DNA of 64,000 nt from an uncultured Crenothrix sp. (GTDB lineage Bacteria; Pseudomonadota; Gammaproteobacteria; Methylococcales; Methylomonadaceae), in the NCBI GenBank assembly GCA_964450225.1, contig CAYVFT010000002.1:4044-68043 (forward strand). Direction: 5' to 3'. The translations under genes were made by a program, and so were the position numbers. The first letter of the stretch is position 1; each line of letters starts with the position of its first letter. Shown here one piece after another: positions 19,621 through 64,000 of this stretch. The notes under the pieces are model-generated. The model ran no database searches. It had not been told where the DNA came from and saw nothing but the letters and a program-made list of their open reading frames with translations.

Positions 19621-19633
19621 CAATGATTGAAGA

Positions 19634-20587: not shown

Positions 20588-20597
20588 AGTTGTATCC

Positions 20598-22595: not shown

Positions 22596-22628
22596 GAGAA
22601 GTAACCTTATACAACAAGAGAGCTTTAA

Positions 22629-24776: not shown

Positions 24777-24788
24777 GGCGATTCTCCG

Positions 24789-26942: not shown

Positions 26943-27299
26943 GCTTATGATTTAATAACGATTACAAACTGAAATGTTGAAAACGGCCAGCAACTTCAGC
27001 CGGAATAACATAAAAGACTTATCCTCAAGATGACCCGTTTTACTGTGAAACAGTTGCATAGTTCCCACACTCCGGTATTGGAGGGTCCATCTAACAACAC
27101 TACGGCGTTGTGTGACGCTAGAGCGCCATCAGTGACATTCCCACGCCGGAGCGTATCGTTATACACAGCTTTCATGCAAAGTACGACAATCCGCCCCCCC
27201 TTTTTTCAAATGGAGGTGAGCTCATGGTTTGGACTTGTGTATAAAAATGAATGCCGGAACGTGGGAATAAACTAACAATTAGTGAATTGACCAAAAAAT

Positions 27300-28097
27300 C
27301 TAGTGCAATCCCTCTTTTGGAGGCAGATCACTTTCATCAACTGCCATAGTTTCTTCGTCGGGTTTTTTATCTGCATCATGAGCGGCAGTTTTTTCTACCA
27401 TCGAATTAAAATTTTTCATTGATTGTAAATGCAGATAAAGCAATTCCAACTCATCAGTTTTAAAGAGTGCAACAATCTGGTCATCAGGCAAATTTTTCAA
27501 ACGATCACGGTTGACTGCCATAAATCCGGCTAATCGTAATTGCTGTCCGGAGTTCAAAGTAAACTGGGCTTGCATCGGCTCCAACAAATCCAGCTCTTGT
27601 AATTTTTTACAAAACATTTGGGTACGACGAAACTGTCCCTGGTAGTCATTAACAAAGCGCAATACATTTTCCAGATATTGAGTACGTTCACCATCAGCAT
27701 CGAATAAATGCTCCCCTCGACCATCCTGATTGCACCCGGCAAATTCCTCGTCTATGCACAGCGTAAATGTCGATTCGTCCGAATTACTCGAAAAAACAAA
27801 TGGATAGCGCCGGATAAAGGCAGGAATATATTTTGCCTTCCAGCCGTTCGTTTCGTTCAAATAAAGGTTCTCATTATCGCGCATACCCAGAATGGCAATA
27901 GGCATCATCGTCTCATCTTTTCCTGCAAACACAATACTATATTCTGCTGCCGCGTGAGGAAACTCCACCGCTACCAGCGGCACCGAATTCACTTGCCGGG
28001 CAAAGGCATAATCAGCACCAGTCTTGACGGACCAACCTTTATGTCGCTGGCTGGATAGTGGCACGGCTCTTTCATATATTAATAACTGTGTGCTCAT
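27300..28097 (-). CDS. SapC-family protein (function unknown)
   Basis: Strong match by eye to the SapC family pattern: VPL......H.....V......FA......VPLV..EF..AA.EY.IVF; YIPAFIRRYPFVF; LCIDE. A GAGGA Shine-Dalgarno lies 9 nt upstream of the ATG. Confidence 0.8.
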   Translation of the reverse strand: MSTQLLIYERAVPLSSQRHKGWSVKTGADYAFARQVNSVPLVAVEFPHAAAEYSIVFAGKDETMMPIAILGMRDNENLYLNETNGWKAKYIPAFIRRYPFVFSSNSDESTFTLCIDEEFAGCNQDGRGEHLFDADGERTQYLENVLRFVNDYQGQFRRTQMFCKKLQELDLLEPMQAQFTLNSGQQLRLAGFMAVNRDRLKNLPDDQIVALFKTDELELLYLHLQSMKNFNSMVEKTAAHDADKKPDEETMAVDESDLPPKEGLH

Positions 28098-28229
28098 TGA
28101 ATCATTTCCTCATTTGATTATTATTTATTGAACTCATAAGACGCTTCTCCATGTATTTTTGACTACTTAACCGAGAACATCGGTTTAACCCCCTGATTAA
28201 AACGCTCTTCCCTTCCTTGGCAGAGCTTG

Positions 28230-28258
28230 AGTATAGAAAATTAAATTTTCATTAGCAA
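28230..28258 (-). promoter_or_regulatory. Candidate sigma70-type promoter upstream of the SapC-family gene
   Basis: On the minus strand: TTGCTA (28253-28258), a 17-nt spacer, then TATACT (28230-28235), about 130 nt upstream of the ATG at 28097. This is a pattern match only. Confidence 0.25.
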
Positions 28259-28478
28259 TAGAATATTGAACAGGAAAATTACCTTGCACAGAATATTATT
28301 GATCGTTTGTTTTAATTTCCATTCTTAAGGTTATATTCACCTAAAAACATCAATTGAAGTTTGCGCTGTAGTCCGTTCGTGCCAAACTGTGTGCTTGTCA
28401 AACAGTCGATGCCTAAACGGACTTCAATGCACTCACACTTTGGGTGAGCCTTTCTGGAATATAAATTATTGAACAATA

Positions 28479-28497
28479 CCGGTATATTCTTTACCGG
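28479..28497 (-). terminator. Weak hairpin immediately after the giant-gene stop codon
   Basis: CCGGTA (28479-28484) and TACCGG (28492-28497) form a 6-bp stem with a 7-nt loop, 14 nt downstream of the TAA (28512-14). It is followed by an AT-rich but not U-run tail, so it is not a convincing intrinsic terminator. Confidence 0.2.
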
Positions 28498-28511
28498 AAA
28501 TCACCTGATGA

Positions 28512-31500
28512 TTATTTTCTCCAGCTACGTGCAGCCATTTTCTTCAACCAGGTTACCAGACCTTCGATTTCACCTGCCTCAGTTACAGGTGCAGCTGAAG
28601 TAAGCCGTTTATCATCGGCAAGCGACAGTAGGTACAACTCATGACGCGGCTTGTTTAAGTCCTGGTCCATGACAACCAGAAATTCATCCTGCTCATTCGT
28701 GACGGTCATCGCACTCTGCTGATCAGACTTGAGAAACGACCCTGAATCGGCATCGAAAAAACTGACCTCTGTTGTAGACGTTGGCAATTCACGTACGCCA
28801 GCCGCCAGCGTGGCATCCATCAATTCTGCTTGACCGTTGGCTGCTTCCGTATGCGTATACCCCAGAACGTGACCTATTTCATGACTAATCACAGTCAACA
28901 GATCCATGCGCCCATTCGCATCGCTTTGCGCCGTGGCCAGCAAACTGCCGTCCGGCATACCCAGATATTCCTCGCTCAATGCCGGTGTGGGATCGACGAA
29001 CCAGCCATAACCCGCTGCATCGGTGTCAACTAAAATACGACCATCACTAATCTCGCCCAGGTTCAGTCCAGGCAGATCCACCACATCCACCCGTATCGCC
29101 TCCAGTAGGTCGAGTTGCTGTGATGTCAAACCGACACCCGCCCACTGCTGTTTGGCTTCGGCCACAATAGAAACCAGGTCGGACGAATTTAATAGCTCTC
29201 CATTGGCTTCTGCTGTGGCCGGGGCTGCTGCAGCTTGCAACAATTTCGGATCCTTGTTCTCCGGATGGGCCTGCTGGTTGCCGTTGTGGAGATTGCCCGC
29301 CACGCACAACACCAGCCGGCCTTGCGGATCTCTGATCTCGATCTGGGCGAAATCGGAAGTTCCCCCCTCGCCGTTGTCGGTGAACATGAACGACACATGA
29401 TACCCCGACACTCCGTTGAACGAGCCGATACCCTGACCGACCAGCGTGTCGAAAGGCGCGGACCGCGGCAGCGGATTCAGCGTTAAATCGTCGTAGCAGG
29501 CCATGGAGGTGACCTGCTCGAGGTGGAAGTTATTTTTGTCCCAGTTGACCTCGAGATTGTTGGGCCCGATCGTCATGTCGCAGTGCAGTTCAAAGCCGTG
29601 CGTGACCCGCGTATCGTCGGCCGTGAAGATGCTGCCGCCGCCGGTCATTCGACCGTCGGTGTGCGCCGGCAAGGTGACCACGAAGTTCGCCGGATCGTCG
29701 TCGCGCACCTTGGTGCCCGTCACGACGTCGGTACCGGTGACCTGGGCGACGTTGATGTAGGCGCCCTGCTGCAGCACGGTGGTGTAGACACCGGCCGAGG
29801 TGTACAGCCAAGTCTCGCCGGGGTTGAGCAGGCCGTCCGTATTCTTGTCGCCCACGTTCCATTGGGCCTTCATTACCGGGACGGGCTTGAAATCGTCACC
29901 AATCACATTGGTGACTGCGTCGTCGACGATCGTGATGTCTTTCAACGCATTGGCGCCGAGGTTGGTCACCTGGAATGTAAAGGTCGGAACCGACCCATTC
30001 TGCAGCGTCACCGGGCGGAGCGGGTCGTTCGCGTCCTCTTGTACCGTCGGATGATTTGGATCGACCGCATTGATTGACTTAACGATGCTGATGCCCGCCG
30101 ATGTACCGAAGTAGTTGGCCTGATCATCGTCGATATAGCTCAGGCCCGTGTCGTCATTGAATGCCTTGACAGTCACGGTGTTCGCGTGCTGGCCTGCCAA
30201 CGCCGTCGTCGGCGCACCGGTCACGCCGGCCGAGGTGAACAGCCAGACTTCTTCGACACCGAGGATGCCGTCAGCAACACCGCCGTTGGGACCCACGTCA
30301 CCGCTGACGTAAGTCGGCATGAAGCCGTCGGAATCGCGCAGGTTAACGATGTTGAGCGGGACGCCGGCCTGGTTGTACACGAGGTAGGTCCAGACCACCG
30401 GTGTGCCGATCTGCAGGATCGGCCCGGTCGGGAAGTCGGCATCCTCGAAGCGCGTCGGCGCCGTCGGCTGCTGCGCATTGATCGCCTTCTCGATCCGGAT
30501 GCCGCCGGTCTGGCCCAGGTAGCTGGCTGCATCGGTGTCGGTGACGACACGCGCAGTGCGGGTATCGGTCCCGGTAGCCTTGACGACGTTGGTGTGCAGG
30601 CCGAGTTCGGCCGATGAGCCGAAGGCCGCGCTGCCCACCGAGGTGTAGCTCCACACCTCGCCGACGTCCAGCAGGTTGTTGCGGTTCGCGTCGCCGACGT
30701 TAAAGCCGGCGCTGAGCACCGCCACCGGCGTGAAGTCGTCCGTGGCCAGGCCCGGCGTGCCGTTGTCGTCGATCAGCGAGGTCACCGTCAGTGGACCGTT
30801 GCCGCTATTGGACAGCAGGTACGTGAAGGTCACGGCCGTGCCTACGTTCATCACCACTGGCGCTAACGGGTTGTCGGCATCTTCTGCGATCGTCGGCCGG
30901 CGCGGGTCGACGGCGTTGATCGCCTTCTCGACGTCAATCCGGGCGACGGTGCCGAAGAGGTTTGCGGGATCGTCGTCCATCACGACGGTATTGGTCCGCG
31001 TATTGACCGCGCTGACCGTAGCGTAGTTGGTGTACGTCCCCTCGCCCACGGTCCTCGTGGCGCTATATAGCCAGATCTCGGTCTTGTCGAGCAGGCCGTT
31101 CTTGTTGTTGTCGCCGGTGTTGTAGACCTTGCCGCCAGCCGTGATAGTCACCGGCGCCGGCACGAAGTCGTCGGCCGTGTTGCCAACTGTACCGTTGTCG
31201 TCGACCAGGGTCACGGTGCCAAGCGTGTCGGCCCCGGTATTGCTCACGGCATAGGTGAATACCGCCAACGTGCCGGCCGGCAGGATGACCGGCGTCGCCG
31301 GATTGTTGGCATCCTCGGCCGTGGTCGGCGCGAGCGGCTTGACGGCATTGACGGCCTTGACCACCTGCAGCCCGCTTTGCGAGCCGTAGTAGTTGGCCAG
31401 GTCGCTCGACGTGGCGACGGACGAGGTGACCGGGTCGCGCACCGACACGCTGCCCGTGTTGGTGTACTGACCGGCCGCGACGGTGCCGCTAGCGCGATAT

Positions 31501-34500: not shown

Positions 34501-37500
34501 GGTCCACCGTGCTGGTCGTTCCAGTCCGGATCATCCTGGTCGACCAGGCCGAGCTCGCCATTCGGCTCGAAGATCGTTGGATCGGCTCCTTCTCCGGTGC
34601 CCAGCGCTTGGATGAATGCCTTGACATGCGGGCTCAACAGCCGATTCACGGTCGGCGCACCGAAGGGGCTGAACGGGACGATGAAGCTGTTGAATTCGCC
34701 CGTCCAGTCGAACAGACGATCGCCGCCGGTGTTGGCCATCAAGACGTCAAGATCGGCGCCGCCATAGGCGAAGTCGGCATCGGCGAACAGTGTAGCGTCG
34801 GGGCCGTCGTTCAGGCCGCCGTTGGTGTCCATGTTGTCGTCGGCATTAAGGTAGTCGTCGCCTCGGCCGCCGAACATGCGGTCGGCACCGGTGCCGCCGA
34901 CCAGCCAGTCATTACCGGTATCGCCAAAGATCCGATCGCTGCCGTCGTGGCTCTTGATCGACTCACCTGCCACCTGGATGAGAGCGCCCGTGCTCTCGTC
35001 GATGCGGTAGGTATCGAAATTGAGCAGGAAGTTTTCGATCTTCGTGCGCGGCTCTTCGGCATTGTATTCCGCCAGCTTGCGCGTTAGCGGGTCATAACCA
35101 AGCGGGTTTGCGGGGTCGTAGCCCAGTGCCGCTTGCGTCTGCGGAGCCTCGGTGTAGAACTCGCGCTCGGCCTCGGCGCCGGAGATTGCATCGTCACCCG
35201 CACCACCGTGCAGGAAGTCGCAGCCCAGACCGCCGTAGATCACATCGGCGCTGCCCAGTTCGAACGCCGCGAGGTCGACGGTCTTCTGGATCTCGCCCGT
35301 GATGTTGACCACTGCACCGACGAACGGGCCCGGGATCGTGAGCAAGGTCTGCTCGCTAACCTCGAACACATTGTTCAGAGACTCGATCAGGCCGTTGCGG
35401 CTTGTCCGGATCTTGCCATCGTCACCCAGGATGCCATCGGTTCCTGTGCCGCCGTATAGGCGGTCGTAGCCGATGCCGCCGTAGATGTCGTCGCCCTGGC
35501 CTTCGCCGAACGCAACATCGTTGCCCGTCATGCCGTGGATCGTGTCGTTGCCCGCCTCGCCATGCAACAGGTCGTCAGTGCCGCGATCGTTCGCGCCGCG
35601 CACGCCTTGTGTGTAGTCCAGCAGCACGAAGGCACGCGGGATGATCTTGTGGCCGGCCGCCGAATCGTCGTAGTTAAAGCTGAGAAAAGCGACCGGCGTG
35701 CCGGGTTGTCCGTTAGTTCCAACCAGTCGGTAGATATTGCCGTTATCCCCCAGAATAACATCAGCATCGCGCGACTGGCCGTCCACGGTCACGTCGCAGT
35801 CGTCCGGCTCGGCGCCGATGTCGTTCCGTACCAGACGCGTGCCGGCACCACCGAAGATCGTATCGGAACCGGCGGGACGCATGGCAGGCGCGATCAGGCT
35901 GAACTGGTCGGAGTTGTCGCCGATCAGGTCGTCCTGGCCCAGGTTACCGAAGATCAGATCGTTGCCGCCGTTGCCTTCAATGTAGTCGTCGCCATCCGTG
36001 CCTGCACCGGCCAGGTCTTCTACCGACACACGGGTCACCCGCGCATTCACCGTCACCCGGCCCTCGATGTCGATCACTGAACCATCGCCCTGGATGTCGT
36101 CATTGCCCATCTGGCCGAAGATGACGTCGCTGCCGGCGCCACCCGCGATGGAGTCACTGCCGTACGCAGTCGCATCGGCCGTATCGTTGTGGTCGTATAG
36201 GCGCACGAAACGCTGCACCGCAGCGGTCGGGTCGACCTGAGCGGTCGCCGTGACCAGTGCATTCCCGTCGCCGTCATAAATGACCTCGCCGGTGAGCACG
36301 CGCATGCGCAGGTTATAGATGCCGCCCGTGCGCAGGATGTCGGCGTTGTCGCCGGCCACTACGTCGTTGCCGCTGCCGGCGTCGATCAGGTCGTCGCCGT
36401 CCTGGCCGCCAAAGGTGTTGTTAATGCCGCCGTCGCCAGCGAAGAGGTTTCCGACGTGGCCACCAATGATGTCGTCGTCGCCCGCACCACCCAGAATGCT
36501 ATCGCCGGCCTGCCCGCCAATCAGGATGTCGTCGCCGTCGTTGCCGCGAACGAGATCCGAGCCACCGTCGTCCGCGTTCTGCGTGTCGATGGAGGTCCAG
36601 GTGAAGGGGTGCACCGGCCGCACGTCGGGCGTCAGCATCAGGGACGCGTCAAGTGCCAGGTTGAGCGGCAGCAGCGATGCGTCGATTTTCTGCTCGCGAC
36701 CGAACTTGTCCTTCGCCTCGATCTTACCGTGGTCGCCAAAGATCAGGTCGTTGCCTTCATTGCCGCTGATTGTGTCAGCAGCCGTACCGCCCAGCACCAT
36801 GTCGTTGTCGGCACCGGCAACAATTGTGTCGCTACCGCCATTGTTGGGCGCATTAGTGCTGATGATGTCAATGTCCAGCGGATCGATATCCCCAAACGAG
36901 GTCAACGCAACACGCTCCTTCAAAACATAATCGACAAAGCCGTTGTCGCCCAGCACGATATCCATGCCGGCACCGGTGTCGATAATATCAGCAGCCATGC
37001 CGCCCATAACGATGTCACGTCCGCTTAAGGTGGTGATTCTGTCATTGCCGCCATCATCGGGTTGGCTAGATTCGATCCGGCCCACGGTAATAGGTTGACC
37101 GGCGAACTGCGGCGCAGATCCGATAATATTGGGATTAGTCTCGATTGTTCCACTCCGATCGGCAGTGGCTGCAATGATTCTTCCGCTGTCGCCAATGACG
37201 AGATTCTGGCCTTCGCGAGCCCTGATAGTATCGCCAAAACGCCCGCCAAGGATGATGTCCTCGCCGTCGCCGGTATCAATTATATCGGCGCCGCCGCCAA
37301 CCAGCATGGACAGGCTTTCGATCAGATCGATGTCGGCCGGATTAAAATCCGCACCGGGCACGTTCGGTGTGCGTTCGGCACGTACGTAATCGATCAGGCC
37401 GTCATCGCCGAAGACGATATTATCGTCATCTACATTGGGATTGCTTAAATCACTGGCTGTAATCGTATCGTTACCGTAACCTCCCATGATTATGTCGCGT

Positions 37501-40500
37501 CCTGACAAAGTACTGATGGTATCGTTGCCGCCATCGGTAAAGGCGATGCTTGAAATTTCGCCGACAGTTAACTCATGAACCGACCAACTAAATGGGTGAG
37601 CATCACTGGCAGCAGCCTTGATCTCGCCATTGTCGCCGAACACAATATTCTCGCCTTCATTGCCATATATACGATCGTTGTCGAAACCGCCCAGCACTAT
37701 GTCGTTGGCGTTGCCGACCGTTATCGTGTCGGTGCCGCCCATGCCGGTGAAGATCGACCATATGAGGTCGATGTCGTCGGTGCGTAGCGTCTGTGTGGTT
37801 GGATTTGACTGTTCCTCTGCCAAGTAATCCACCGAGCCGTGATCCCCGAAGACAATGTTGTTGCCGTCAAGCACGGCCGTGCCGCCGCTGCTTACGAATG
37901 CGTTGATCACATCGTTACCGCCGCCGCCGAAGATCATATCACGGCCGATGCCGGTGGTGATCGTGTCGTCGCCATTGGCCCTGCTGTTGGTCGAGCCGTT
38001 GATGTCGCCGACATCGATTGACGTCACGAGACCCAGCACCTGCACTTGGTAGTCGTCGTCGGTCTTAAGCGGGTTGGGGTCGCCGATCGGCCGGTTCACT
38101 GAAGTAAGGACGCTGACGGGGTCAACACCCAGAATCTTGCCATGGTCACCGAAGACGATGTTCTGGCCTTTGCCGGCATCGATGGTGTCGTTGCCCTGGC
38201 CGCCAAAAATGATGTCGTCGGAAGCGTCGTCAGTGATGGTGTCGCCCTTGCCTAAGGCGGCCGCTGTGAAAATGCTCTCGACCACGTCGAGCGTGCTCAG
38301 ATTAATATCTGTGGGTGTAATCTCGGTGACGCCAAAGTAATCCGCCGACATGTAACCCATATGGCCGTGGTCGCCTAAGATCACGTCGCTATCGGCGCCG
38401 CCGCTGATGGTATCGATGCCGTCGCCGCCAAAGATGCGGTCACGCCCGGCATTGCCGCTGATCGTATCGTCATTGCCATTGGCGGGTTGCATCGTAACGA
38501 GATCCATGATCCGGCCAACACTTTGGATCGTCTGCAGCCGCGGGTCGAGCGTTGGTGGTGTATTCAGTTGGCCCGCCGTGAAGGTGATACGCGCGCCGGC
38601 CACATCCTGTGTGACCACACCATGATCACCGAAAATCACGTCGGCAACATCAGCAACTTCGGTACTCGATAAACTGCCCGCGCCTTCGCCGGAGAGTGTA
38701 TCCTTGCCTGCGAGCAGGTGATCGAGCACGTCGAAGGTACCAGCCGCCACAGTCGATTGGATGGTCGGAACCGTGAGATTGCGCGTGATCAGATCGACGT
38801 TGATTCCGGAATCGCCATAGATCAGGTCGGCACCGCGTTGGCCCTCGATAATATCGTCACCAGTACCGCCGGCGAGACGATCGCCGGTCTGACTGCCGTA
38901 GATAGTGTCGTCGCCGGCTCCGCCGTAAGCATTGATGCCAATGGCCTTCAAAGTGCCGTCAGCATTGGCACCGATCAGCTGCCGCGCATCGATCACGTCG
39001 TTGCCGAACCAGTGGAACAAACCTGCCTGAGCGAAAATAAAGTCAGCCGTGCCGTTACCGATCAGAGTACCCCAGGGCTTAGTCCCGAAATCGTGTGCCG
39101 ACATGCGGGACGGGTCGCCCTGGTACCATACACCATCCTGGGAGGTGTCGCCATAGACTACCAATGGAGATGCGGATCCGCCACCGCCGGTGACAATGAT
39201 GGAGTCGCCGCCGACACGCGTCATGTCGTTGTCGACAGGCTGTACAGCAACATAAGGGTCGGGCACACGGTTGCGAGCATGGCCCTTGGGATCCAGCACG
39301 CCAAGCAGATGCGCCTTACCGTCCGCCAAAGCTACCGTTGTGCCGCTCACCGTCATCACATTGACATTCAAAGCCGTAATGACGCCTGAAGAGATTCCAT
39401 CATAAAGGATGGTCTGGCCAATCGCGAAACCATAGTCAGACCAGGCCAAGCCGTCATTGCGAGTGATCTGGGTATTGCTGCCGGAATCTATAATACGCGC
39501 AACTGTGAACGGCGCACTGACCTGCAACAGCGAATTGCCGCCGCCATGTATGGCTGTGATGCCGCCGTGCAATGCAGAGATACCGGTCGAAATATCCTTG
39601 CCCGGCTGCAGCGTGCCGCTGACCGTCAGTTTGTCGTTACCCTCGCCGAGCATAAGGTTGACAACCTCAATCGTGCTAAAACCGCCATCGGTGACGAAGT
39701 TTCCGTTACTGTCGATCGAAATCGTACCGAAAGAGATGCCGCCAGGGATAACGAGTGATTCGCCGAAGTCGGTCGTACTGAAGCCCTGTTCAGTGAAATC
39801 CAGGCCGGTAGACATGTTCAGGCCAGTAATAGTCGTCGACGTCATTGTGCCGACCTGGTTCTCGACGCTCGAATCCGAGTACACGTTAAGCACGTCGATT
39901 TGTGTCGCCTCGGACGGCTGCGGTGGAATGGCGAAGAATTGCCCATTGGTCTCGCCCAGAAGCAGTAGTGCCTTTTGCAGCGAGCGGTCAGCAGTAGTGG
40001 TACCGCCTTCGACTTGCAGCGGTCCCTGCAAACCGCCCAGCAGGTGGGGTCGCTTCGCAAAAGTCTTGGCATTTTCGCTGCCTGGTGCCGGCACGTAGTC
40101 CGGATCGGCCGCAACTTTCACCGTCACCGGAGTATTCCAGTTGCCCGTGGTAAAGGTCACCTGCGGCGCCCATTGAGTAACCGTCATTATTCCGTTAGCC
40201 AAGCTCGGCGTATGCGTAGCCGTCAGCGTAAGCTGATCGAGCTTGCTGCTTGTGGTGCCATGGATACTCTGAATTTTGTAGACGTCGCCACTAGTCGCGC
40301 CGTTGAAACGCAGCAATTGGCCTTCGAAGAAGCCGTCGTCCAGCCAGCTCGAACCGTCGCTACGGGTTAGCGTACGCGTCGCGGCGTTCCAGTCAATAGT
40401 GCCGGTGTACAGCCCGTGTTGAGCCGTGCCGATCACTGCCAGTTGCACCCTGCTGTCGTATACGATATTGGTTTGGCCATCGGTTAGAATCGAAATTTTC

Positions 40501-52500: not shown

Positions 52501-55500
52501 TGGATGATATTCCCCGAAGCATCAAGATCCGCACCCATCAAGTTACGAGCCACTGCTGCTCCAATGGACGCTCCGATACCACCGCCGGAAACCCCTACAC
52601 CAACGGCCGCAGAAGCTCCTACTACGACTGCGCTGACAGTAGCCGTACTTTGGGCATCAAGAACGACGTCGGCAGCACTTGTTAATTTACTGTCTTGAAC
52701 ATAGGCGTTAGTCTTGGTGAGAATAATATTGGTAGATTCTGCTCCTGCCCCGCTCAATGCCACTCCAACGGCGCCCCCTATAGCGGCCGAAAGGGATGCG
52801 GCAACGGAAAGGCTGGAAATGGATGTTTCTGCTAACCAGCGTTGCGTGTCACCGTAATCTTCCGTGGACAGATTTTGAGAAATGAGTTGCCATTTTGCCG
52901 TATCGGAATAATCAGCTTTGCCAAGATCAACAGTTTGATTATCGAGACCGGATTTGGCTTTGTAAAATGCGCCCGCAATGCCTTTGCCGCTGAAATCATC
53001 CGCCAATTTAACGATGTCATTTGTCTTGAGGGTGGCGCTGCCAAAATTGGAAGTATATTGATATTGTTCCCCAAGGAAACGATAAACTTTATTTCCACCC
53101 GCTTGTACCTTATCCCCTGTTCTTAATGCCTGAGAGCCTGAATTAGTATATTCAAAGCCAAAATCACTCGGATCTTCAAGGACAGAAGCATTTAAGATAA
53201 TGTCACCTGTGGTTGATTCCACTTCGGCGTCTTTGATAATGGCCTCGACATTATTGCTAATATGATTCTTGGCCAGAGACACACCAACCGAAAGAGCGCC
53301 ACTTATCCCGCCGCTGCCGGCAATGCCCAATGAAGCTGCGGCGACATCGGACCGAATGTGGGACTTATCACTGGCAGTCAGCTCGACCCGGTCGGCATGA
53401 ATGCCGCTGTCGCCATCGCCGTCGATATAGGCTTTCACATCAATCGCGATTTTGTTTACGGCGCTGGAACCGGCGCCTGTAAGGGCAAGGCCGTTGCCGC
53501 CTCCGGCGATGGCGACTGACAAGCCCAATACCAGAGATTCAATGCTCTCGTTGGACTCCGCCGTTTGTATCAGGTCGCCCGTAGCGGAGATACTGGAATT
53601 CTTGACGTAAGCCTGAGCCTGAGCCCGCTTGGGATTGGTGGGCTGATTGTTTGAGTCCAGATCCCAGCCGATCAGGTTGCGTGCTATCGAAACGCCGATA
53701 GAACCAGCTCCTCCCAAACTTCCGCCTACGCCCACTGCGGCCGATGCGGCCGCTACCGTTGCGTGGATGGATGAAATGTCAGAGGCGATCAGTTCAACGT
53801 TGCCGGTCCCGTCGCCGGTACCCGCACCCAGCGTTACGAGCTTGCCATCCTCCACATAGGCATTGGTCTTGGTCAGGATGACATTGGTAGATTCTGCGCC
53901 CGCGCCGCTAAGCGACACTGCAAGTGAAGGACTTCCTGAAAGCGCCAACGATGCCGCCACGGATAGTGCATCGATGGTGGCATTTTCTTCCGCTTTCAGG
54001 GTAATGTCGCCGGTTCTGGCTGTAACAACGTTGTCGGCATTCTTGATAGAAGCCTCGATTTCATTGGAGATATAATTACGGGCCAGCGAAACACCAATGG
54101 ACAGGGCGACTCCTGCACTGCTTCCATAGGCTCCTGCCAGCGAAGCGCCGGCCGCGTTTACTTCAATAGCGGAGTTATCGACCGCAGTCAATAGCACGTT
54201 ATTCGCCTTGATGCCGGTGAGACCATCGCCATCAATGTAAGCCTTGACATCGGTGGCGATCCGGTTTTCCGCGCTCACTCCCGCTCCGCTAAGGCCCACG
54301 CCGACACCACCCAGTCCCGCCGAAATCGATACCGAACCCGCAAATACGAAAGCGTCGATGCGCTGGTTGGAATTGGCGTCGAGAGTGAGATCGCTCGCGC
54401 TGGTGACACTGGAATCCTTGATGTAAGCCTGTGTTTCCGCAGCCTTAAGGGTCGGCGCGCCAACCGTATTTGGTTCCCAGCCGATGTAGTTCTCGGCCAA
54501 TGCAACGCCGATGGAAGCACCAACCGCGCTCTGTCCGCCCACGGCCAACGCCACCGAAACAGCAAGCACTGTGGCATCTATGGACGCAGTGTTGCCCGCA
54601 TCCAGATCGACTTTCCCGGCGCTATCGATTGTGCTGTCCTGGATAAAAGCATTGCCTCTGGAAAGAATGACATTGGTAGCCGACGCGCCCGCTCCGGCCA
54701 ATGCCACTGCGGTCTGCGCTGAGAACGAAGCGCTCACGGAAACGGCAGTCGATTGCGCGGATATGGAAGCCTGTTGCCGCCAGCGGCTTGCATCGGAATA
54801 GTCCTCTGCTGCCAGGTCGCTAGTAACCAATTCCCAATTTGCAGTGTCGGTCGCGTAATCGATAGAACTGAGATCCACACCGGTCATAGCCACTTTGGCG
54901 CGATAAAACTTATTGGCCTCGGCATTGTGAGTATAGTCGCCGGCCACTTTGACGATGTCGCCGGCCTTGAGGTCGGCTCCCAACGCGATATCGGGCGAGC
55001 CGCTAGTCACTTCCTCCCACACATTTGTGTCGAGGAAATTTTCGGTACCCAAGTCCACGTCGCGGTTGATGTCATTTTTGGCCTTGTACAGCTTGCTGGA
55101 TGAACCCGCGGTCTTGACAATCCGGCCCACTGCGACACCGGAAATAACGAGCGGCGCGGTAGTGGAGGCCGTCGTGTAACGGTAGGCCTCGCCCAGAAAC
55201 ATGAACAGTACCCCGCCGGTTGCCTTAACGACGTCGCCCACAGCCAGAGCGGCGCTGCCCGTGTTGTTGTAATCGCTGGCGAAATCGCCGGTATCCTCCA
55301 GGGTATCCGCCAGGACAGTGATCGCCCCGATGTTGGTTTTAACGTCGGCACTCTTGATAAAAGCGTCGACAGTGTTATTGATATAGTTACGGGCGATGGA
55401 GGCGCCGATGGAAATGGTTGCAGCAGTACCTCCAGCCAGCGCACCAGCCACGGAAACAGCTTGGGCATCGGCATGGATGCGCGACTTGTCGTAAGCCTCG

Positions 55501-58500
55501 ATGGAAATCGCGCCACCATCGGCATCCTGGCCTTTGGCGGTCACCTTCTTAACGCTGGCGCCACCGTCAATGTAGGCCTGGATTTTCGTTGATATTTCGT
55601 TCTCGACATAAAGCCCTGCGCCGCTAAGACTGGTGGCCCCTTGGGTTGACAGCGCGACGGCGACTGACGTCGCTCTAATGGTCGCATCAACATAGTTGTC
55701 GCTGGTGGCGCTAAGGCTCACTGTGCCGTCGGCAGTCACCACGGAATTGCTTATAAACGCCAGCACTTCATTGGGTTTATTGCCGTCCCTATCTCCAATC
55801 TGGTTTTGAGCGACGGATATGCCGATAGACAAGCCGAGTGAATTCTGCAGACCGGCAGCCACGCTAACCGAACTGGCGCGAACCTCGGCCGTGATGATGG
55901 AGACTTCGGACGCAGTTACGCTGACGTTACCTTTGCCCGTACCGTGTGCAAAGACGGTACTATCCTCAATCGAGGCATTCGTTTTACCGAAAATAGAATT
56001 GAATGCGAGCGCCCCGCCGCCGCTAAAGGATTTGCCCTGGTTAGCGCTAGCTGCAACCGAAACTGACGAAGCGGCGACCGTTGAAACGATCTCCGCCTGC
56101 TGATCGGCTTTGACGCTGATGTCGCCGTCTTGGGCCGTCAGCGTTAATTTCTTGGCATATGCCTTCATATCATGGTCGATTTCATTCCGGGTAGCGCTGA
56201 TGCCAAGCGAAATGTCGAGAGAATTGGAACCGGCAGACGCGGCAACAGAAACCGATGACGCAGTGGAAATTGCGTCAATATACGAGGTATCGGTCGCAGT
56301 AATCTCAATACCCTTCCCAGCGGTGACGGTTTTTGGCGCACCGGTGGCACCATCAATATAAGCTGCTGAGTCAGTCGCGATCTTATTCATGGCGATCACG
56401 GCACCGACGCTGACTGTAGAGCTCGATGAAGAGCCAGAACCAGCGCCTAAAGACGGATTAATCGAAAGGGCCGAAGTATCTATGTGTGCATTGATCAGGC
56501 TGTCGGACAGGGTAGAAACAAGTATGTCGCCTTTGGTGGAGACACCGGAATTCTCGATATAAGCATTAATCAGCGACGGATCTTGCGTACCCAAAATTGC
56601 CCCAAAGACATCGATCGTGTTGAACAGGAAGTTTTGGGACTTCCAGCCGATGGTGTTGAAAGCCAGAGTGACGCCGACTGAAGTACCGTTGGAACCTGTA
56701 TAGCTGTCAATTTTGGATGTGATGGACATGAGGCTCTCAGCAGTGACGCTGACGTCACCACCGGTTGTCGTGTTTGACACGCTGCTGTCTATTATGTAGG
56801 CCTCGGTGTTGCTCAGGATCAGGTTAGTAGCAATGATGGCGTTCACCGCGGTAGCGGCGCCACCTCCGAACGATGCGGCAACCGCTTCGGCCTCGCTGTC
56901 CAGATCAGCCAGGATTTGCGCTTCTTCAAGCGCGCTAACCAGCATATTGCCGCCGCTGACGGAGACTATCGCGTTGTCTACATGGGCTGCCGCGCCGCCG
57001 CGGACGTCGTTCATTGCTGCCGCTCCGGAAATACCGGAGGCGCGCGGTTTCTGACCGGGTGACAAGCTGACTCCAACCGCCGAGGCTGACAATGTCAAAG
57101 TGGCATCAACACCGGCGTGGTCTATGGCCGATACTGTCAAGCCACCGGCGGTTTCGATGTCCGCCCCGGGAGCCGCCGCGTGAACGAAACCATCTTTATT
57201 GGCGATATAAGCTTGCGCTTCTCCGCTGACCCTGTTTAGGGAAGCCACGAGTCCCAGGCTCAGAGTCTTGGCAGTAGTAGCGGAAGACGAAGTTCCGAGA
57301 TCCAAGGCCTTGGAATCGGTGGTATTGGTAATGCTAGAAACGATATCCAGTTCATTCAGTGCTGTGACCGCAAGCGCTTCGCCGGTATGGACGATGCTGT
57401 CTTCAATGCTGGCCTTCGCCGCTGAACCGACTTGTCCCTGGAATTTGTTGGACAGCAGCGGATCGCCCAATAGCGTGTCGATCGTATTGAACAGAGCGTT
57501 CTGGGATTTCCAGCCAATGGTGTTGAAAGCCAGGGTAATGGCGATGTCGTTTGCTTCAGTGACCGGCACGGTTTCATCGGCGGTAACCTTGTTAATCAGC
57601 GTCGCGGTAATTTGAGCGGTGTTTTCAGCGTTTACTGCAACTGCTCCGCCCACATCGACGCTGCTGCCAGCGATGCCGGCGGTAGCCCCGTTCAGTACCA
57701 GGTTGGTAGAGATGATACCGCCAACAGCGAGTGAAGACGCATTGCCGAACTGTACGCCGGAAGTCTTGGCTTCCACGTCGATAACCGAACCTATCGTCGC
57801 ATCCTCGAAAGCGAGCACATTGACGCCACCGTCAGAAGTAACCGTAGCATTTACGATCGATGCACCAGCTCCACCTCGCACGTCGTTTAGCGACACTGCT
57901 CCGGCAACCGCCGAAGATTTTACCTGGGTGGTATTGTTGATGCTGTTTGTTTCAGTAACTGATTCCAGCTCAAGCGAAGAGCCTATGTCGGCCATGTCGC
58001 GCGCAGTCACGTCGACACCCTTATCCGCCTGGACGAGATGGGCGGCAAAGCCAGTGCCTGTAAAACCGACAGACGCATCAGCTGCACTGCTGACCTTGTT
58101 CATCGCAACAACTGCCCCGAGAGCAGTACCTTTACGGCCCTTTAGGCCAAACGAACTGGTTTCGCTGGTGTTTTTCACAGATGAAGTGATACTGGCATCA
58201 GCAATTGCTCCCACCGAAACATTGCCGCTGGCGTCGAGCAAAGTGTCCAGCACTGATGCCGTCGCACCGGAACCGATGTTGCCGCCAAATGCATTCGCGA
58301 TCAACGGATCACCAATAAGAGCGTCGATCGTATTAAACAGGATGTTCTGCGACTGCCAGCCAATGGTATTGAAGGCCAGAGTAACGCCGAAAGCATCATT
58401 TTTAGCGCCGGTTCCCGAAGTACCGGTGGAGATGTCTTGAGACGACGATTCCGCCGAATTAACGACGCTCGCCGAAATGATCGCAGTGTTCTTGGCTTTG

Positions 58501-61500
58501 ACGACCAGATTGCCCGCCATGACATCCTGAGTCAGCACACTGCTGTTATGGATGCTGGCGTCAGCTTTGCTCTGTACAAGGTTGGTGGCAATGACGCCAC
58601 TGACAACGAGCGAAGGCCCGCTGGCGCCTGTGCCGATCACCGAAGCCTTAGCTTCGACTTCACTCACAGTAGTAGAAGTCAACTGGGCAGCTTCGTTTGC
58701 CTTTACTTGCACATCACCGTTCTTCGCTTTGACCGTAGCGTAGCCAATGGCCGCACTTGCACCTCCACGCACGTCATTCAAAGTGACTGCTCCGCCGATG
58801 GCGCGTGTTCCCGTAGGGGTACCGCTACCGCCGCCGGTGTCAGTGTTGTTGCTATCAGAGCTGCTGCCTACCGTGATGGTTGAAGTGATATTTGCGGTAT
58901 CTTTTGCGACAACGCTCACGCCTTGATCAGCTGTAACCAAAGATACAGAGGGGTTGCCGTTGGTAAAGTCGATGCGAGCCTCTGCGGCGCTACTGACTTT
59001 GTTCATAGCGACGACAAAACCCAGGGCCAAGGTTTGGCTGCCCCTGAGGCCAATGCCGGTGCCTGTGCTGCTAGCGGTGGTAGTGTTGCTGATGTCAGAA
59101 CTCAGCGTGGCGTCTGCTATGGCATTGACCTCAACTTGTCCGCCGGCAGCCACGACAGTGTCTTTCAGCAGCGCGGTGGCGCCGGAGCCAATGTTGCCGC
59201 CGAAGGCGGCGTCGGACAGGACCGGCGCGCCTAGCAAGGCATCAAGGGTGTTGAACAGGATATTCTGCGAGGCCCACCCGATGGTGTTGAAGGCCAGGGT
59301 CACGCCGACGCCGGAGGTACCGGCGGGCTGATTGTTGTTATTGGCGGTGGTGCCGAGCAGGTCGGAGGTGGCGTCCGCGGCGTTAACTGTGGTAGCCGTG
59401 AGTTTCGCTTTTTGGGTCGCAAGGATCGTGACGTCGCCGGTAGTAGTAATGGCGCCGTTCAGCACGCTGGCTTCAGTATCGCTTTGCACCAGGTTGGTGG
59501 CGATGATGGCGCTTACCGCCAAAGTTGCGCCGGTGCTCATGCCCAAGCCGGTGGCTTCGTTGTTGGCAGCAATTTCGCTGGTGGTGGTCGCAGTCAGCAC
59601 GGCCGTTTCGTCAGCCATGACCAGGACACTGGCGCCGCTAACTTTCGCAAAGTCAATGCCGGCGCTGGCGCCGCCACGGGCATCGTTCAGGGACACGGCG
59701 CCGCCGATGGCGCGCACGCCAGTCGGAGGGGCGCCATTAGTACCGCCGGTACCGTATTTGCTGCTGTCGGACGTGCTGCTCAAGGTAATAGTGGCATTGA
59801 TGCTGGCACTGTCGGTGGCGCTCACGGTCACGCCGCCGGTGGCGGTGATCAGGTGATCCGCCAAAAGGCCGGACGTAAAGTCAATCTGTGCTTCGGCGGC
59901 GCTGCTGACTTTGTTCATGGCGACTACGCCGCCCAGGGCCAGAGTTTGACCGCCCTGCAACTGGGTACCGGTGGCGCTGGTGGTGGCTGTGGTCGTATTC
60001 CTAATATCAGACGTTAAGGTCGCGTCCGACAGGGCCTCTACGGATAGCTTGCCGGAGGAATCAACCACAGTGTCCACTAGCTTGGCTGTTGCATTGGACG
60101 GATTTTCCCCATTGAAGGCACCGGCCAAAAGGGAATCACCCAACAGAGCATCCAGGGTATTGAAAAGAACGTTCTGGGATTCCCAACCGATGGTATTGAA
60201 GGCGAGAGTGACGCCGACTGCTCGGGTACTGGTATTCCCACTGCCGGGGTTGCTGCCTCCTGTAGAAGTGGTGTCGATCTTGGCGGTCGCCGAGTTGATG
60301 GTCCTGGCGATTAGGCTGGCTGTGTTGGCGGCGCTAACCTCGATATCGCCCTTCTCCGTCGGCGTGTTCAGGCTAGTAGTCAGATCGCTGTTACGAATCG
60401 TTGCGGTCGCTGCACTTTGAACCAGATTAGTGCCAATCAGCCCGTTAACGGCAAGAGACGGTCCAGCCGCAAGCACCAGACCAAGCGCCTCGACACTGGC
60501 GAACAACTCGCTCGTCGTCTTGGCAATCAGCTCAGCCGCTTCTTCGGCCGTGACAACGATATCGCCATGATTGACATCTACCGTGCTGTCATCTATTGAC
60601 GCCGCTGCTCCGCCGCGCACGTCATTCATCGATACCGCACCGGCGATGCCCTTGACTCCCTTCATAGGAGTGGTGCCGTCCGCTCCGGTCCCGGTGATAT
60701 CCGTTATCACCGCCGTTCCGAGAGTGATGGTAGCATCGATCCCGGCCGTGTCATGAGCTCCAATAGCAAGCCCGCCTTTAGCAACGATCAGGTGACTCGC
60801 CAACGCACCGGACATAAAATCGACGGACGCTTCGGCTTTGCTGCTCACCTTGTTCATCGCCAGGACGATGCCGAGTGCAAGGCCTTGCCGCCCTTGCAGG
60901 CTGGTTCCGTCGGCATCGGCGGACGACTTCGTGTCATTGGTGACAGTGGAAACGATCTGTGCGTTGGACGTGGCGTCGATGACCAATTGACCGTTCGCGT
61001 GAACGACGGTATCCACTAGTTTCGCCGTCGCGCCGGAGCCGATGTTGTTGCCGAATGCGGTATCGGACAAAACAGGTGCGCCCAGCAAGGCATCAATGGC
61101 ATTGAACAGGATATTCTGTGATTTCCACCCCAACGTATTGAAAGCGAGGGCGACGCCAATCGCGTCGGTTTCGACGCCAGTGACCGGATCCCTTGACTCT
61201 TGGCTAAAGGTTCCGCTGTCCGTGGATACCGAAACGCCGTTGACCATCTTTGCGGTCAGGGCGGCGGAGTTGTCAGCCTCGACCATAACCAGCCCTTTGC
61301 CTGCGGCGGTATCCAAGGTGGTTAGATCACTGCGGAGGATGGCCGCATCCGCCTTGCTCTGAACGAGGTTAGTCGCAATCAACCCACTCGCCCCCAAGGT
61401 GGAACTGGGGCCGGTCCTGGCGAACGGCCGATACCATTTGTTCGTTATCACAGATGAACTGGCTACGAGCTCGCTGGTGGTCTCTGCTTTCAGTTCTGCC

Positions 61501-64000
61501 GTTTCATCGGCCCGAACGGTGATGTTACCGGTCGAGACTTTGATCTTGGCATCTTCAACGCTCGCATTGGCGCCGCCCCGTACGTCGTTCATCGAGACTG
61601 CCCCGGCTACGCCGACAGAACCGAATGAGGGAGCCGTCGTGCTCCCAGACGTCGAACCTACACTACCCAAAATGGTGAGATCCGACGTGGTACCCAGGGT
61701 AATTGTGGAATCAATCCGTGCCGTATCCTGTGCGAGAACCGTCAGGCCTTTGCCGGCATCGATGTCGGGTCCGGTCGCCGGATGGACAAAACCGTCGCTG
61801 TAATCAATCAGCGCCTCAGCAGAGCTGTTGGCTTTATTCGTGGCAATCACCGCCCCCAAGCTGAGCGCACGTGAACCTTTCTTGCTTACAACATCACTGA
61901 TGGTGGTATTGCTGATGTTCGAAACTACCGTGGCATCGGCGAGCGCGCTGACGTTCACTGCCCCGGTGGCCTTCACCACGGAATCAACCAGAGTGGCAAT
62001 GGCGTCGGATGGATTCTCGCCATCGAAGACTTGCGCCAACAAGGGATCACCCAGAAGCGCATCTACGCCATTAAACAAAATATTCTGCGGCCGCCAGCCG
62101 AGGCTGTTGAACGCCAGGGTCACCGCAGCACCCATGGCTGTCGGCGGTGGTGTCGCTCCAGGACTTGGCGGAGGGTTCGCCGGTGGCCTGCCGGCCAACT
62201 CCAGCATCATATCCGCGGCATTTACCACGATCGCGTTCAACGTTGCTCTATTAGTGGCGTCGACAGTGACGTCGCCCATCCCGGATGCCGTGTCCAAGGT
62301 ATTGATTTGACTGCGCAGAACCTTCGCTGTCGCCCCGCTTTGCACCACGTTGGTTCCGATGAGACCACTGACTCCGATTGATCGGATTGTTGATGATGCA
62401 AAATCCCTGTCGTTCGACTTCGTAGAAATTGTCGTACTGGCCACCAGGTCACTCTCAGCCGTGGCGCCGATTCGGGCGAGCTCGTCGGCCGTCACCACCA
62501 CGTCACCTGTGGTCGCCGTTACAGCAGTATCTTCGACACGGGCTACCGCTCCGCCCTTCACGTCGTTGTAGGTGATTGCTCCCGCCACACCAATAGCGCC
62601 CGTGGCTGTCGGCGGGGTAGGCGGGGTTGACCGCGGCTTTTGCCGTATTGTCACTGAATCCGTATCCAGAATCACGTTACCCTCAATCACCGCCCGATCA
62701 TCTGCCGTCACACTGACACCCGCCCCGGCGGTTACCATCGACGCCAAGCCGACGGAAACATCAGTATCATCAATCGTCGCATTGGCCTTGCTGCTGACTT
62801 TGTTCATCGCCAACACGGCGCCGAGACTGAGACTGCGGCTACCCATCTTGCCGCTGGCGCTGGCTACGGAAGTGTTGCTAATATCGGAATTCAGTTGCAC
62901 TTCACTGGTGGCGAGAACGCTCACTTGTCCCGTTGTGGCGGTTACTACGCTGTCGAGAATACTGGCCTTTGCGTCTGAGGGGTTTTCGTTACCGAAAGCG
63001 TTGGCCAGCAAGGGATCGCCCAGAATGGCGTCAAGGGTATTAAAGAGAAGGTTTTGCGAACCCCAACCGATACTGTTGAAAGCCAGGGTGACGCCGAGGT
63101 CGTAGGCTTCAGTAGACACGGTGGTGCGCCTGACCGTGCTCTCGACCGAAGACGAGGAGGCGTTAACCACTTCGGCGCTGAGCTGTGCGCGGTTGTCTGC
63201 CGAAACGGCGATGTTACCAGTCTGTGCAATCACCGTGCTGTTTTTCAGCAATGCTGTGGCGCCACTTTGAACCAGGTTGGTACCGATGACGCCACTAACG
63301 CCTAGGCCACTGAAGTTTCCGCTTCGGATTCTACCGCCCACGGTGGTGCTAGCGAGCAACTCGGTATCGGTACTGGCTACCAGGCTAGCCTGCTCGTCGG
63401 CCCGGACGCTGATGTCGCCGGTTTTCGCATTCAGCGTGCCGCGAACGACCGTTGCACTGGCGCCGCCCCGCACATCGTTGAGCGAAACCGCTCCGGCGCT
63501 GCCGATGCCGCTGAGTTGGGGAGGGACCGTAATGGGTGGTGGGCCGGTGTTGATGATTGTAAGCCGGGAATCAGTCGACAGAACGATGGTGGAGGCAATA
63601 TTGGCTTCCCGCTCCCAGACCGAGGGGGCGAGTTCCCAGAGCGTGCCGTCGGCATAGTTCTGGGTGCCCAGCTCCAGCGGCCCCTGGTTGGTTTTCGAGC
63701 GATAAACAGCGCCAGGATCGCCACCGCTGGCGTAGCCGTCGCCAACTTTAACCGTTGTCCCCACGGCGATTGTCTGTTGGCCGGAAGCTGTCGTGTAATC
63801 GGGGGTTTCTGAATAGTCGACCTGGCCGAGATTCAAGGTATCGTTCAGCCCCATATAGCGGTAAACCGCACCTGGTTCACCGCCGTTAGCATAGTCGTCG
63901 GCCAGCTTAACCCGGTCGCCCGTAGTTATCGTCTGCGAACCCGAAGCGGTGGTCAGGACCGGATCGGCAAAACCGTCACGCGCGTTGACGAGGATTCCAC
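28512..64000 (-). CDS. Giant (>11,828 codons in window) repeat-rich secreted/surface adhesin-like protein with an internal RTX Ca-binding block, an Ig-like domain array and a C-terminal metzincin-like motif; 5' end lies beyond the window
   Basis: A single ORF with no stop from 64000 down to TAA 28512-14. I translated 63855-64000 by hand: 48 further sense codons (..[49 protein letters not shown]) that continue the N-terminal repeat. The ATG at 63854 is therefore internal. Segment architecture is listed in the repeat features below. Confidence 0.92.
   Translation of the reverse strand, partial: [11828 protein letters not shown]
28851..28883 (-). other. Metzincin zinc-binding consensus HExxHxxGxxH ([11 protein letters not shown]) in the C-terminal domain of the giant protein
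   Basis: Codons read directly: cat gaa ata ggt cac gtt ctg ggg tat acg cat, in frame with the giant ORF, with the first His 122 codons before the last codon. Confidence 0.8.
29690..34390 (-). repeat. Eleven Ig-like (DUF11/TIGR01451-type conserved-repeat-like) domains of about 142 aa; domains 2-5 and 6-9 form a duplicated 4-domain super-repeat of about 1.73 kb
   Basis: Domain starts ([VI]x[VI][EV][KN][AS][IV]NA...P..P...EDA[DN]) lie at about 34370, 33965, 33515, 33090, 32670, 32230, 31780, 31350, 30925, 30490 and 30080. The IRIE[NK]AINA anchor (antisense attgatcgc[ac]ttctcgat[gc]cg[gt]at) is at 33951-33974, 32217-32240 and 30477-30500, giving periods of 1734 and 1740 nt. Confidence 0.8.
34815..38935 (-). 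repeat. RTX / hemolysin-type Ca-binding repeat block (GGxGxDxx-type nonapeptides organised in longer units of about 40 aa)
   Basis: Examples: [40 protein letters not shown] (about 38810-38935); [126 protein letters not shown]. More dispersed GGxGxD-like motifs occur at 41600-43000. Confidence 0.85.
48480..50390 (-). repeat. About 12 consecutive coils of about 50 aa with the signature x-x-x-A-[YWF]-[IV]-[GDKE]...(N/D)-[LI]-x-[IVL]-x-A (parallel beta-helix-like)
   Basis: Read in translation: [89 protein letters not shown] ... [22 protein letters not shown]. Confidence 0.65.
51000..55700 (-). repeat. Five copies of a roughly 270-aa beta-solenoid-like unit (sub-motifs AGAxxTNxIL, ARNxIG, GAGxxxxNx[11 protein letters not shown], ARNxISNxxEAxIK) with variable insertions
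   Basis: KAYIDG(D/G)G anchors lie at about 55575, 54240, 53430, 52285 and 51085. The irregular spacing (1335/810/1145/1200 nt) is explained by inserted modules at 54780-55265, 52830-53135 and 51610-52030. Confidence 0.7.
56400..63650 (-). repeat. Eight tandem in-frame units of about 282-323 aa, each with the core [24 protein letters not shown] and a GAVS[LM]NDVRGGA motif
   Basis: The core motif is found in antisense at about 63001-63092, 62036-62125, 61075-61155, 60125-60215, 59230-59305, 58300-58385, 57455-57540 and 56600-56675. Anchor spacing is 969, 968, 942, 910, 918, 845 and 868 nt. Confidence 0.85.

Follow-up and report, generated by a model that had tools for sequence, protein, structure and literature searches.

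Within a 64,000-nt stretch of DNA from an uncultured Crenothrix sp. (contig CAYVFT010000002.1, positions 4,044 to 68,043; hereafter the window, in whose own positions all coordinates are given), one giant gene of 11,780 codons combines blocks that differ sharply in G+C content at third codon positions (GC3), and the nearest relative of its product changes from block to block. This patchwork probably arose through the in-frame replacement of internal segments between divergent homologues carried by genomes of differing GC content, GC-rich segments having entered the gene of the host.

Third-position composition and architecture of the giant gene

The open reading frame (ORF; 28512..63854, minus strand) runs from ATG to TAA with zero internal stops and stays open through all five internal junctions. 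Raw GC along the window rises from 0.44 to 0.59-0.65 at ~29 kb, then is 0.45-0.51 at 44 kb and 0.54-0.63 from 53 kb. Counted per 150 in-frame codons, GC3 is 0.53-0.73 over codons 1-3450 (63.9-53.5 kb), 0.38-0.53 over codons 3451-6600 (53.5-44.05 kb) and 0.59-0.89 over codons 6601-11550 (44.05-29.2 kb), with 0.53 in the final interval. An earlier sequence-only reading, made from short samples of codons, had proposed such a sharp mosaic within one frame, and the computed profile, which is far from flat, confirms it.

The limits of the blocks were set by binary likelihood segmentation on third-position G/C, which divides the gene into six blocks, A, B, C, c2, D and E (Table 1), with change-points at 53,306 (log-likelihood ratio, LLR, 117), 44,030 (LLR 238), 37,676 (LLR 13), 36,755 (LLR 44) and 29,252 (LLR 32). 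The boundaries first placed by eye at about 53,280, 44,100 and 29,300 fall within 30-70 nt of the computed ones, to which two features are now added: GC3 dips to 0.57 at 37.7-36.8 kb, and it rises from C (0.71) to D (0.81). The steps in GC3 are complete within ~30-60 codons.

Amino-acid composition was rejected as the source of these steps. The codon usage of block B, applied to the amino acids of each block, predicts a flat GC3 of 0.44-0.47 in every one of them; the amino acids with a synonymous choice shift the same way between blocks in 18 cases out of 18; and shuffling synonymous codons while keeping the protein (n=300) yields a top LLR of 8.2, against 238.6 observed. The sequence-only reading had judged composition alone insufficient, and it had noticed that homologous modules on either side of 53.3 kb differ in codon usage. 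Both views hold: a repeat family at aa 2500-4500 straddles the A/B boundary, and at identical residues of aligned paralogous modules GC3 is 0.62-0.77 on the A side and 0.37-0.52 on the B side, with 0.63 vs 0.65 for a pair within A. Block D also leans towards GC-rich genomes in its amino-acid usage, with fewer K and I and more P and R, and its GC at first codon positions (GC1) is 0.63 vs 0.54.

In the flank, GC3 is 0.40-0.46 at 15-28 kb and 0.49-0.65 at 0-15 kb, a region of polyketide synthase (PKS) and capsule genes. The former interval includes an export cluster (18.2-28.1 kb) whose GC3 of 0.40-0.45 agrees with the AT3-type usage, inclined to A or T at third positions, that had been attributed to it by eye. 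C and D lie clearly beyond the local range of GC3, and block A (0.64) stands at its upper edge. Proteins encoded in the flank fall into 90% clusters together with entries labelled 'MAG: Methylococcaceae bacterium'.

Table 1. Blocks of the giant gene and other features of the window
Feature	Coordinates	Strand	Description
Block A	53307..63854	minus	Codons 1-3516, GC3 0.636
Block B	44031..53306	minus	Codons 3517-6608, GC3 0.449, host-like
Block C	37677..44030	minus	Codons 6609-8726, GC3 0.713, largely without repeats
Block c2	36756..37676	minus	Codons 8727-9033, GC3 0.567; transition zone within RTX-like repeats
Block D	29253..36755	minus	Codons 9034-11534, GC3 0.810; RTX/beta-roll part, DUF7507, about eleven ~145-aa repeats
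Block E	28512..29252	minus	Codons 11535-11780, GC3 0.51
Polymorphism hotspot at the D/E junction	29217..29600	minus	Three strains carry mosaic variant combinations (conversion tracts)
Strain-level replaced tract in B	44480..46280	minus	Corresponds to L021 1-1800 of the sister; nt divergence from it 12-17% upstream of ~44,780, 1-2% downstream
Export cluster	18229..28097		SapC, PilZ-GAF-HlyD, M50-like/HlyD-like fusion, SecA-like ATPase, HlyD, TolC; AT3-type

Comparison of the giant protein with itself reveals, in order, some eight ~310-aa repeats (aa 1-2500), the second repeat family that runs from A into B, a short repeat family at aa 4500-5000, mostly unique sequence at aa 5000-8300, RTX-like repeats at aa 8300-9500 and the array of block D at aa 9800-11400. 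Paralogous repeat units are ~66-75% identical in nucleotides, and Tandem Repeats Finder (TRF) reported no tandem arrays in the ORF, the repeats being too diverged. The D array also contains a segmental duplication of four units (~580 aa; 30600-34100, aa ~9922-11076), an older event whose copies are 64-67% identical in amino acids and ~71% in nucleotides.

NCBIfam places LktA_tand_53 repeats at the N-terminus, and no Pfam family matched in aa 1-6608. In the C-terminal half, Pfam matches are confined to RTX repeats and DUF7507, with a metzincin signal in E that is weak; the HemolysinCabind matches reach 1e-19 and 1e-22, and the 19 GGxGxD motifs, at aa 6679-9662, are internal and not C-terminal. 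Block E begins after an Ala/Pro linker and comprises a metzincin-type zinc motif, SHEIGHVLGYTH, at aa 11657, then a C-terminal tail, with weak matches to Peptidase_M10 and post-COAP-1. In the cyanobacterial RTX proteins P0033, P0034 and P0037, an E-like domain is N-terminal, not C-terminal.

The D/E junction falls on the Ala/Pro linker, C/c2 and c2/D each fall within a conserved GxDxIxGxxG motif, and A/B is found within a KAYIDGDG-type unit. No exact repeat longer than 15 nt occurs within 400 nt of any junction, and a repeat-induced mis-join was rejected on that ground.

Nearest relatives block by block

Searching each segment separately for its relatives, as the sequence-only reading had proposed, reveals a nearest relative that differs block by block; the relatives compared with the window are designated by L numbers for DNA contigs and by P numbers for proteins. 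Homologues of the B/C region are rare and at most 41% identical over the query. Block B is closest to L008 and L009, two mid-GC contigs of cyanobacterial type (52-53% GC, GC3 0.45-0.54) that are mutually 97% identical, match aa 3100-6641 and share 45-62% of amino acids with B. L008, Phormidesmis-like and cyanobacterial by its neighbouring genes, runs straight on into RTX repeats after the equivalent of aa 6641. For block C, the nearest relative is L007 (66% GC, GC3 0.75-0.88), collinear with aa 5034-9374 and 58-70% identical in C over a background of 32-47%.

Homologues of block D are counted in hundreds. The best are P0009/L013 (69% GC, GC3 0.90) and P0012/L014 (64% GC, GC3 0.84), which are 76-77% identical to it in aa 9034-9800 and whose contigs both carry the type of export module found beside the giant gene. 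The top homologues also include proteins from metagenome-assembled genomes (MAGs) labelled Microbacteriaceae and Nocardioidaceae, and further ones are plasmid proteins of Rhodococcus antarcticus and Rhodobacteraceae. Block E is ~36% identical to the GC-rich contigs related to D. The top relatives of block A, searched for with aa 1-1500, reach 43-52%, among them L022, an Isosphaeraceae-like contig of 65% GC (GC3 0.89).

Identity also changes at the junctions. To L007 it rises from 24-48% over aa 6151-6600 to 52-68% beginning at aa 6601; within c2 it drops from 65% to 35%, and identity to L013/L014 rises there from 41-44% to 70-82%, the nearest relative switching at this place. At D/E, identity to L013, L014, P0010 and P0011 is 60-80% up to aa 11550, then 28-53%, or homology is lost.

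Rate heterogeneity was controlled with a star alignment anchored on the giant protein. In B, the window is 53% identical to L008, with 39% for both the window-L007 and the L007-L008 pairs. In C, the window and L007 share 58-70%, against 32-46% between L007 and the others. In the D0 segment the window is 77% identical to L013 and 76% to L014, which are 77% identical to each other, and it shares 38% with L007 and 51% with Alisedimentitalea. The alignment indicates that simple rate differences are excluded as the cause of the block-wise identities for B, C and D. The adjoining SapC is roughly equidistant among the lineages (48-58%), and the export proteins of the window are 36-52% identical to those of L013 or Alisedimentitalea. 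Set against these values, the pairings in the star alignment indicate that the ancestry shared with GC-rich lineages, a different one for C than for D, is more recent in these two blocks than elsewhere in the locus.

Along the relatives themselves GC3 is flat and equal to that of their neighbouring genes, at 0.85-0.95 in L013, 0.82-0.92 in L014 and 0.88-0.90 in L022, as well as in L007, L008 and L009 over the ranges already given. The plasmid genes of Rhodococcus antarcticus have a GC3 of 0.83-0.98, and the complete giant gene of an Alisedimentitalea scapharcae plasmid (8,148 aa) has 0.54-0.64 per 300 codons. The family, of which members are found on plasmids, is collinear throughout, Alisedimentitalea matching B weakly (25-29%). 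Because the relatives are both flat and collinear, the mosaic is better read as segment replacement among homologues than as a fusion of unrelated genes or as selection on codons.

A scan of representative genomes, the window's own not among them, with an alignment of the C block gave three distant RTX matches only. Metagenome scans with B-centred and then C+c2 queries, in a collection that does not include the sister contigs, found nothing, the six peptides of the B-centred scan all lying in B. No near-identical donor lineage was found in these searches, the best relatives being 58-77% identical in amino acids. On one Rhodococcus antarcticus plasmid (NZ_CP110618.1, 54.9 kb), two family members of 6,747 and 2,189 aa (GC3 0.94-0.96) lie within 8508-38452 and occupy about half of the plasmid length; the feature list of its first 47 kb contains no SapC, HlyD, M50 or SecA gene.

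Sister strains and the origin of the patchwork

A sister strain, ~2.3% diverged, is represented by four independent assemblies: a JGI 49-kb contig (L016), two Logan assemblies (L017 and L018) and a JGI 507-kb contig (L020/L021). A comparison with sister strains had also been proposed from the sequence alone, and it proved informative: they run collinear to the window from 46,280 as far as the export cluster, which is included, with matching GC and GC3 steps at B/C, C/c2, c2/D and D/E. Because the steps recur there, these four junctions are genuine and older than the split of the strains. The giant ORF of the sister measures 12,779 aa in L018, 10,361+2,428 aa in L016 and 9,940 aa plus fragments in L021. 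The ORF is split in L016 by a 1-nt insertion at ~2190 (= window 35904), probably an assembly error or else a minor variant, since it does not appear in the Logan assemblies of that strain. The sister ORF is ~1,000 codons longer than that of the window (12,779 vs 11,780 aa), the extra sequence lying upstream of the equivalent of 46.3 kb.

Strain divergence was computed per 300 nt on MAFFT alignments. Outside the replaced tract of B (Table 1), it is 1-2% in the rest of B, in C and in c2, patchy at 2-8% in D, and again 1-2% in E and the export genes. Inside the tract, from 46,280 to ~44,780, codons with synonymous differences amount to 15.9% and those with nonsynonymous differences to 10.8%, and the sister's version is likewise AT3-type; the block most replaced between strains is this AT3-type block B. 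Differences from AT to GC and from GC to AT are balanced in every block (59 and 75, respectively, in D; 19 each way in C). At the D/E hotspot, which lies just 5' of the junction, the ENA megahit contig L001 (= window 10598-29378) has 10 mismatches up to 29,216, then 16 in its last 162 nt; in the flank its identity to the window is 99.95%, but at 29,274-29,310 and 29,365-29,370 it has variants of the sister type. A 6-nt (Ala-Thr) indel at 29,220 is situated in the Ala/Pro linker. Recombination is ongoing in the giant gene between strains.

Among the explanations offered by the sequence-only reading was in-frame recombination between giant genes of differing GC. It is supported by the change of nearest relative from one block to the next, which coincides with the GC3 steps, by the flat GC3 of the relatives and by the recombination tracts that exist between strains. 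Under this explanation, the giant gene would belong to a widely dispersed family of collinear giant secreted proteins, every member being linked to an export module of SapC/HlyD/M50-like/SecA-like type. In a Methylococcaceae-like lineage (flanks of ~45% GC), internal segments of the resident gene would have been replaced in frame by homologous segments from GC-rich bacteria. C and D would each come from a source of its own, which makes at least two, and A might come from a third or an older one; B, the C-terminal E and the export genes would be the resident parts of host composition.

The joins would lie at module boundaries or conserved motifs, namely the Ala/Pro linker at D/E, the RTX-like GxDxIxG motifs at C/c2 and c2/D and the shared repeat family at A/B, where short similarity together with tolerance of the hybrid protein could make in-frame joining viable. 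A likely mechanism would be homology-facilitated or illegitimate joining, with selection for joins that keep the frame open and the C-terminus compatible. Plasmid-borne copies would provide a plausible vehicle, and E may have been retained since it must match the local export machinery. The GC3 steps would persist because drift of the imported blocks towards host composition is still incomplete.

Several points weigh against this account. We infer the direction of transfer, from GC-rich genomes into the host, from composition only, and likewise infer the recombination mechanism, the role of plasmids as vehicles and the reason for the retention of E. With donors at 58-77% identity at best, the transfers would be old or the donors unsampled. 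For block A, the best GC-rich match is 43-46% identical, no higher than the identity within its array; its GC3 is equalled by one flanking host gene (0.65), the host reference being ~28 kb of flank only; and codon usage is what suggests, weakly, a separate ancestry. The A/B junction was not observed in any independent assembly. Finally, the recent strain breakpoint in B (~44,780) lies 750 nt off the GC3 step, the junction not being exactly reused today.

The events could also have run in reverse, a wholly GC-rich giant gene having been acquired and its B and E later overwritten by low- or mid-GC alleles. In its favour, GC3-rich sequence makes up about 70% of the gene; all family members are collinear, and even Alisedimentitalea and Rhodococcus show weak homology of the B type; and B is replaced between sister strains today and has its nearest relative in a mid-GC cyanobacterial type. 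We nevertheless find this order quite unlikely: C and D have different nearest relatives (L007 and L013/L014), so a single GC-rich import would be insufficient and extra events would be needed, and E shares with the export cluster a host composition and low strain divergence, as resident DNA would. GC-biased gene conversion, another proposal of the sequence-only reading, or some other recombination-linked GC drive in repeat arrays would suit the location of the two largest arrays (aa 1-2500 and 9800-11400) in GC3-rich blocks and the patchy raised strain divergence of D, which suggests conversion tracts. However, block C is largely non-repetitive, and one family spans A/B with differing usage. 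The paralogous units are old and too diverged for ongoing homogenisation, as the lack of TRF arrays also indicates, strain differences are symmetric, without AT to GC bias, and the most recombined block is the AT3-type B. Moreover, homologous arrays in relatives match the GC3 of their own genome, and the steps are complete within ~30 codons. Such a drive is thus unsupported and very improbable.

An assembly chimera joining reads of different organisms, which had also been suggested, would find some room in the facts that the window is part of a 71.6-kb contig from an apparent MAG, that the end of the megahit contig L001 lies 126 nt beyond the D/E step, that A/B is seen in the window contig alone and that window and sister are ~15% different upstream of 44.8 kb. 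It is refuted for B/C, C/c2, c2/D and D/E by their collinear recurrence in the sister strain, namely in the two JGI contigs (49 kb and 507 kb) and the two Logan assemblies, to which one near-identical contig is added. Giant ORFs that are intact in sister assemblies (12,779 aa and 9,940 aa), a frame open across all five junctions and the absence of exact repeats longer than 15 nt near them make a chimera very improbable overall. Selection for module-specific codon usage, tuning for example the kinetics of translation or secretion, would account for the conservation of the steps between sister strains, but the same modules in relatives follow the GC3 of their own genome with flat profiles, all amino acids shift alike, a mutational or ancestral signature, and GC1 and amino-acid usage shift as well; we regard it as extremely improbable.

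Segment replacement might, tentatively, be part of something wider, a scenario that we think possible but rather doubtful: an exchange network across phyla, in which the giant gene would act as a capture site and GC-rich passenger blocks would be swapped in frame between genes that would all rely on a single ABC-less export apparatus, not described before and made up of a truncated SecA-like ATPase, an M50-like/HlyD-like fusion, a PilZ-GAF-HlyD adaptor, TolC and SapC. The sources would be Actinomycetota-, Rhodobacterales- and Planctomycetota-like bacteria, partly plasmid-borne, and the host-type E and export genes would be fixed as a lineage-specific secretion adaptor. If this were true, GC3 steps would mark a general mechanism of megaprotein diversification, and the locus would represent a new variant of tripartite secretion that may be regulated by cyclic di-GMP (c-di-GMP).

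Known systems, export cluster and left flank

Mosaic genes formed by interspecies recombination include penA and pbp2x (Neisseria, Streptococcus) and lktA (Mannheimia). The giant gene resembles them as an intact ORF of in-frame blocks, with nearest relatives in different species and breakpoints visible as divergence steps. Those genes acquired their blocks by transformation from species close to their own and similar in composition, whereas the blocks of the giant gene measure 1-10 kb, range in GC3 from 0.45 to 0.81 and have relatives in different phyla or classes that are distant even at best. Of the marks by which mosaic genes are recognised, the giant gene shows internal discontinuities, a nearest relative that changes for B, C, D and E and, for four of its five junctions, recurrence in independent assemblies; a near-identical donor is lacking. 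With five compositional junctions in one ORF and relatives in different phyla, it is a striking example and not a new principle. Mosaic genes that combine different species are classical, and penA is described as one (PMC11473337).

The locus provides a clean and quantified case in which segments of different histories form a stable in-frame patchwork over 35 kb of one gene and retain their composition. Megaproteins may diversify via segment replacement between distant homologues, and not only through repeat expansion. Composition-based binning, detection of horizontal gene transfer (HGT) and chimera filters can mishandle patchwork giant genes, and phylogenies of giant genes need to be constructed block by block.

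Giant surface-protein genes are described as atypical in composition, with unusual oligonucleotide usage, and as strain-specific (Reva & Tummler 2008, cited in PMC2528017). In Chlorobium chlorochromatii, the giant genes Cag_663/665 are flanked by sapC and tolC (bioRxiv 10.64898/2026.03.19.712371). The giant gene of the window is likewise longer than 30 kb, repetitive, cysteine-poor, acidic/Thr-rich, strain-variable and situated by SapC and TolC. The atypicality described in this literature concerns whole genes, whereas here it affects separate blocks of a single ORF, between which others are host-like.

Giant RTX adhesins with type I secretion are exemplified by LapA, MpIBP, SiiE and FrhA. The giant protein shares with the LapA/MpIBP type its RTX nonapeptide repeats, long arrays and modular build, as well as an adjoining membrane-fusion protein and TolC. 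Unlike this type, it stands by a cluster without an ABC transporter, where a SecA-like ATPase and an M50-like/HlyD-like fusion are found instead; its RTX repeats are internal (aa ~6700-9700), not terminal, and its C-terminus is metzincin-like. Neither BIg/Ig-like extender nor LapG-type retention modules were detected by Pfam or NCBIfam, the N-terminus having only the LktA_tand_53 repeats. As the locus lacks an ABC transporter and neither an Ig-like extender nor a retention module was detected, the protein should not be classed as a canonical RTX adhesin of a type I secretion system (T1SS), and the label 'adhesin' is not demonstrated.

The sap locus of Campylobacter fetus, from which the Pfam name SapC originates, comprises SapA homologues plus sapCDEF. 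Both loci have a SapC-family gene beside transport genes and a large surface-protein gene that is reshuffled with one end constant. C. fetus proceeds by programmed inversion among resident cassettes and uses a standard ABC-type T1SS, whereas allelic or foreign segments are replaced here.

In the export cluster, the fusion protein (715 aa) combines an intramembrane HExxH/M50-like protease with an HlyD-like domain, and the truncated SecA-like ATPase (665 aa) scores below SecA cut-offs; an ABC transporter was not found among the genes at 18.2-28.1 kb. The ABC-less HlyD-M50-SecA module with SapC is also present beside giant genes in L013 and in the Alisedimentitalea scapharcae plasmid NZ_CP123586.1. 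Such a module accompanies the giant-protein family in Gamma- and Alphaproteobacteria and in GC-rich bacteria. No direct description of the module, or of intragenic GC mosaics in RTX adhesins, was found in the literature, and the module may be the more novel item at the locus.

The left flank (31-17479) is biosynthetic. It carries a 5'-truncated type-I PKS (KS-AT-DH-ER-KR-ACP, 2,254 aa), together with an aminotransferase resembling 8-amino-7-oxononanoate synthase (AONS), a methyltransferase, a sulfatase, a short-chain dehydrogenase/reductase (SDR), two capsule-synthesis genes, a phosphopantetheinyl transferase (PPTase) and a gamma-glutamyltransferase (GGT), for which an exact protein look-up gave no record. 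Its GC of ~52% and GC3 of 0.49-0.65 are above those of the export cluster (44-45% and 0.40-0.46).

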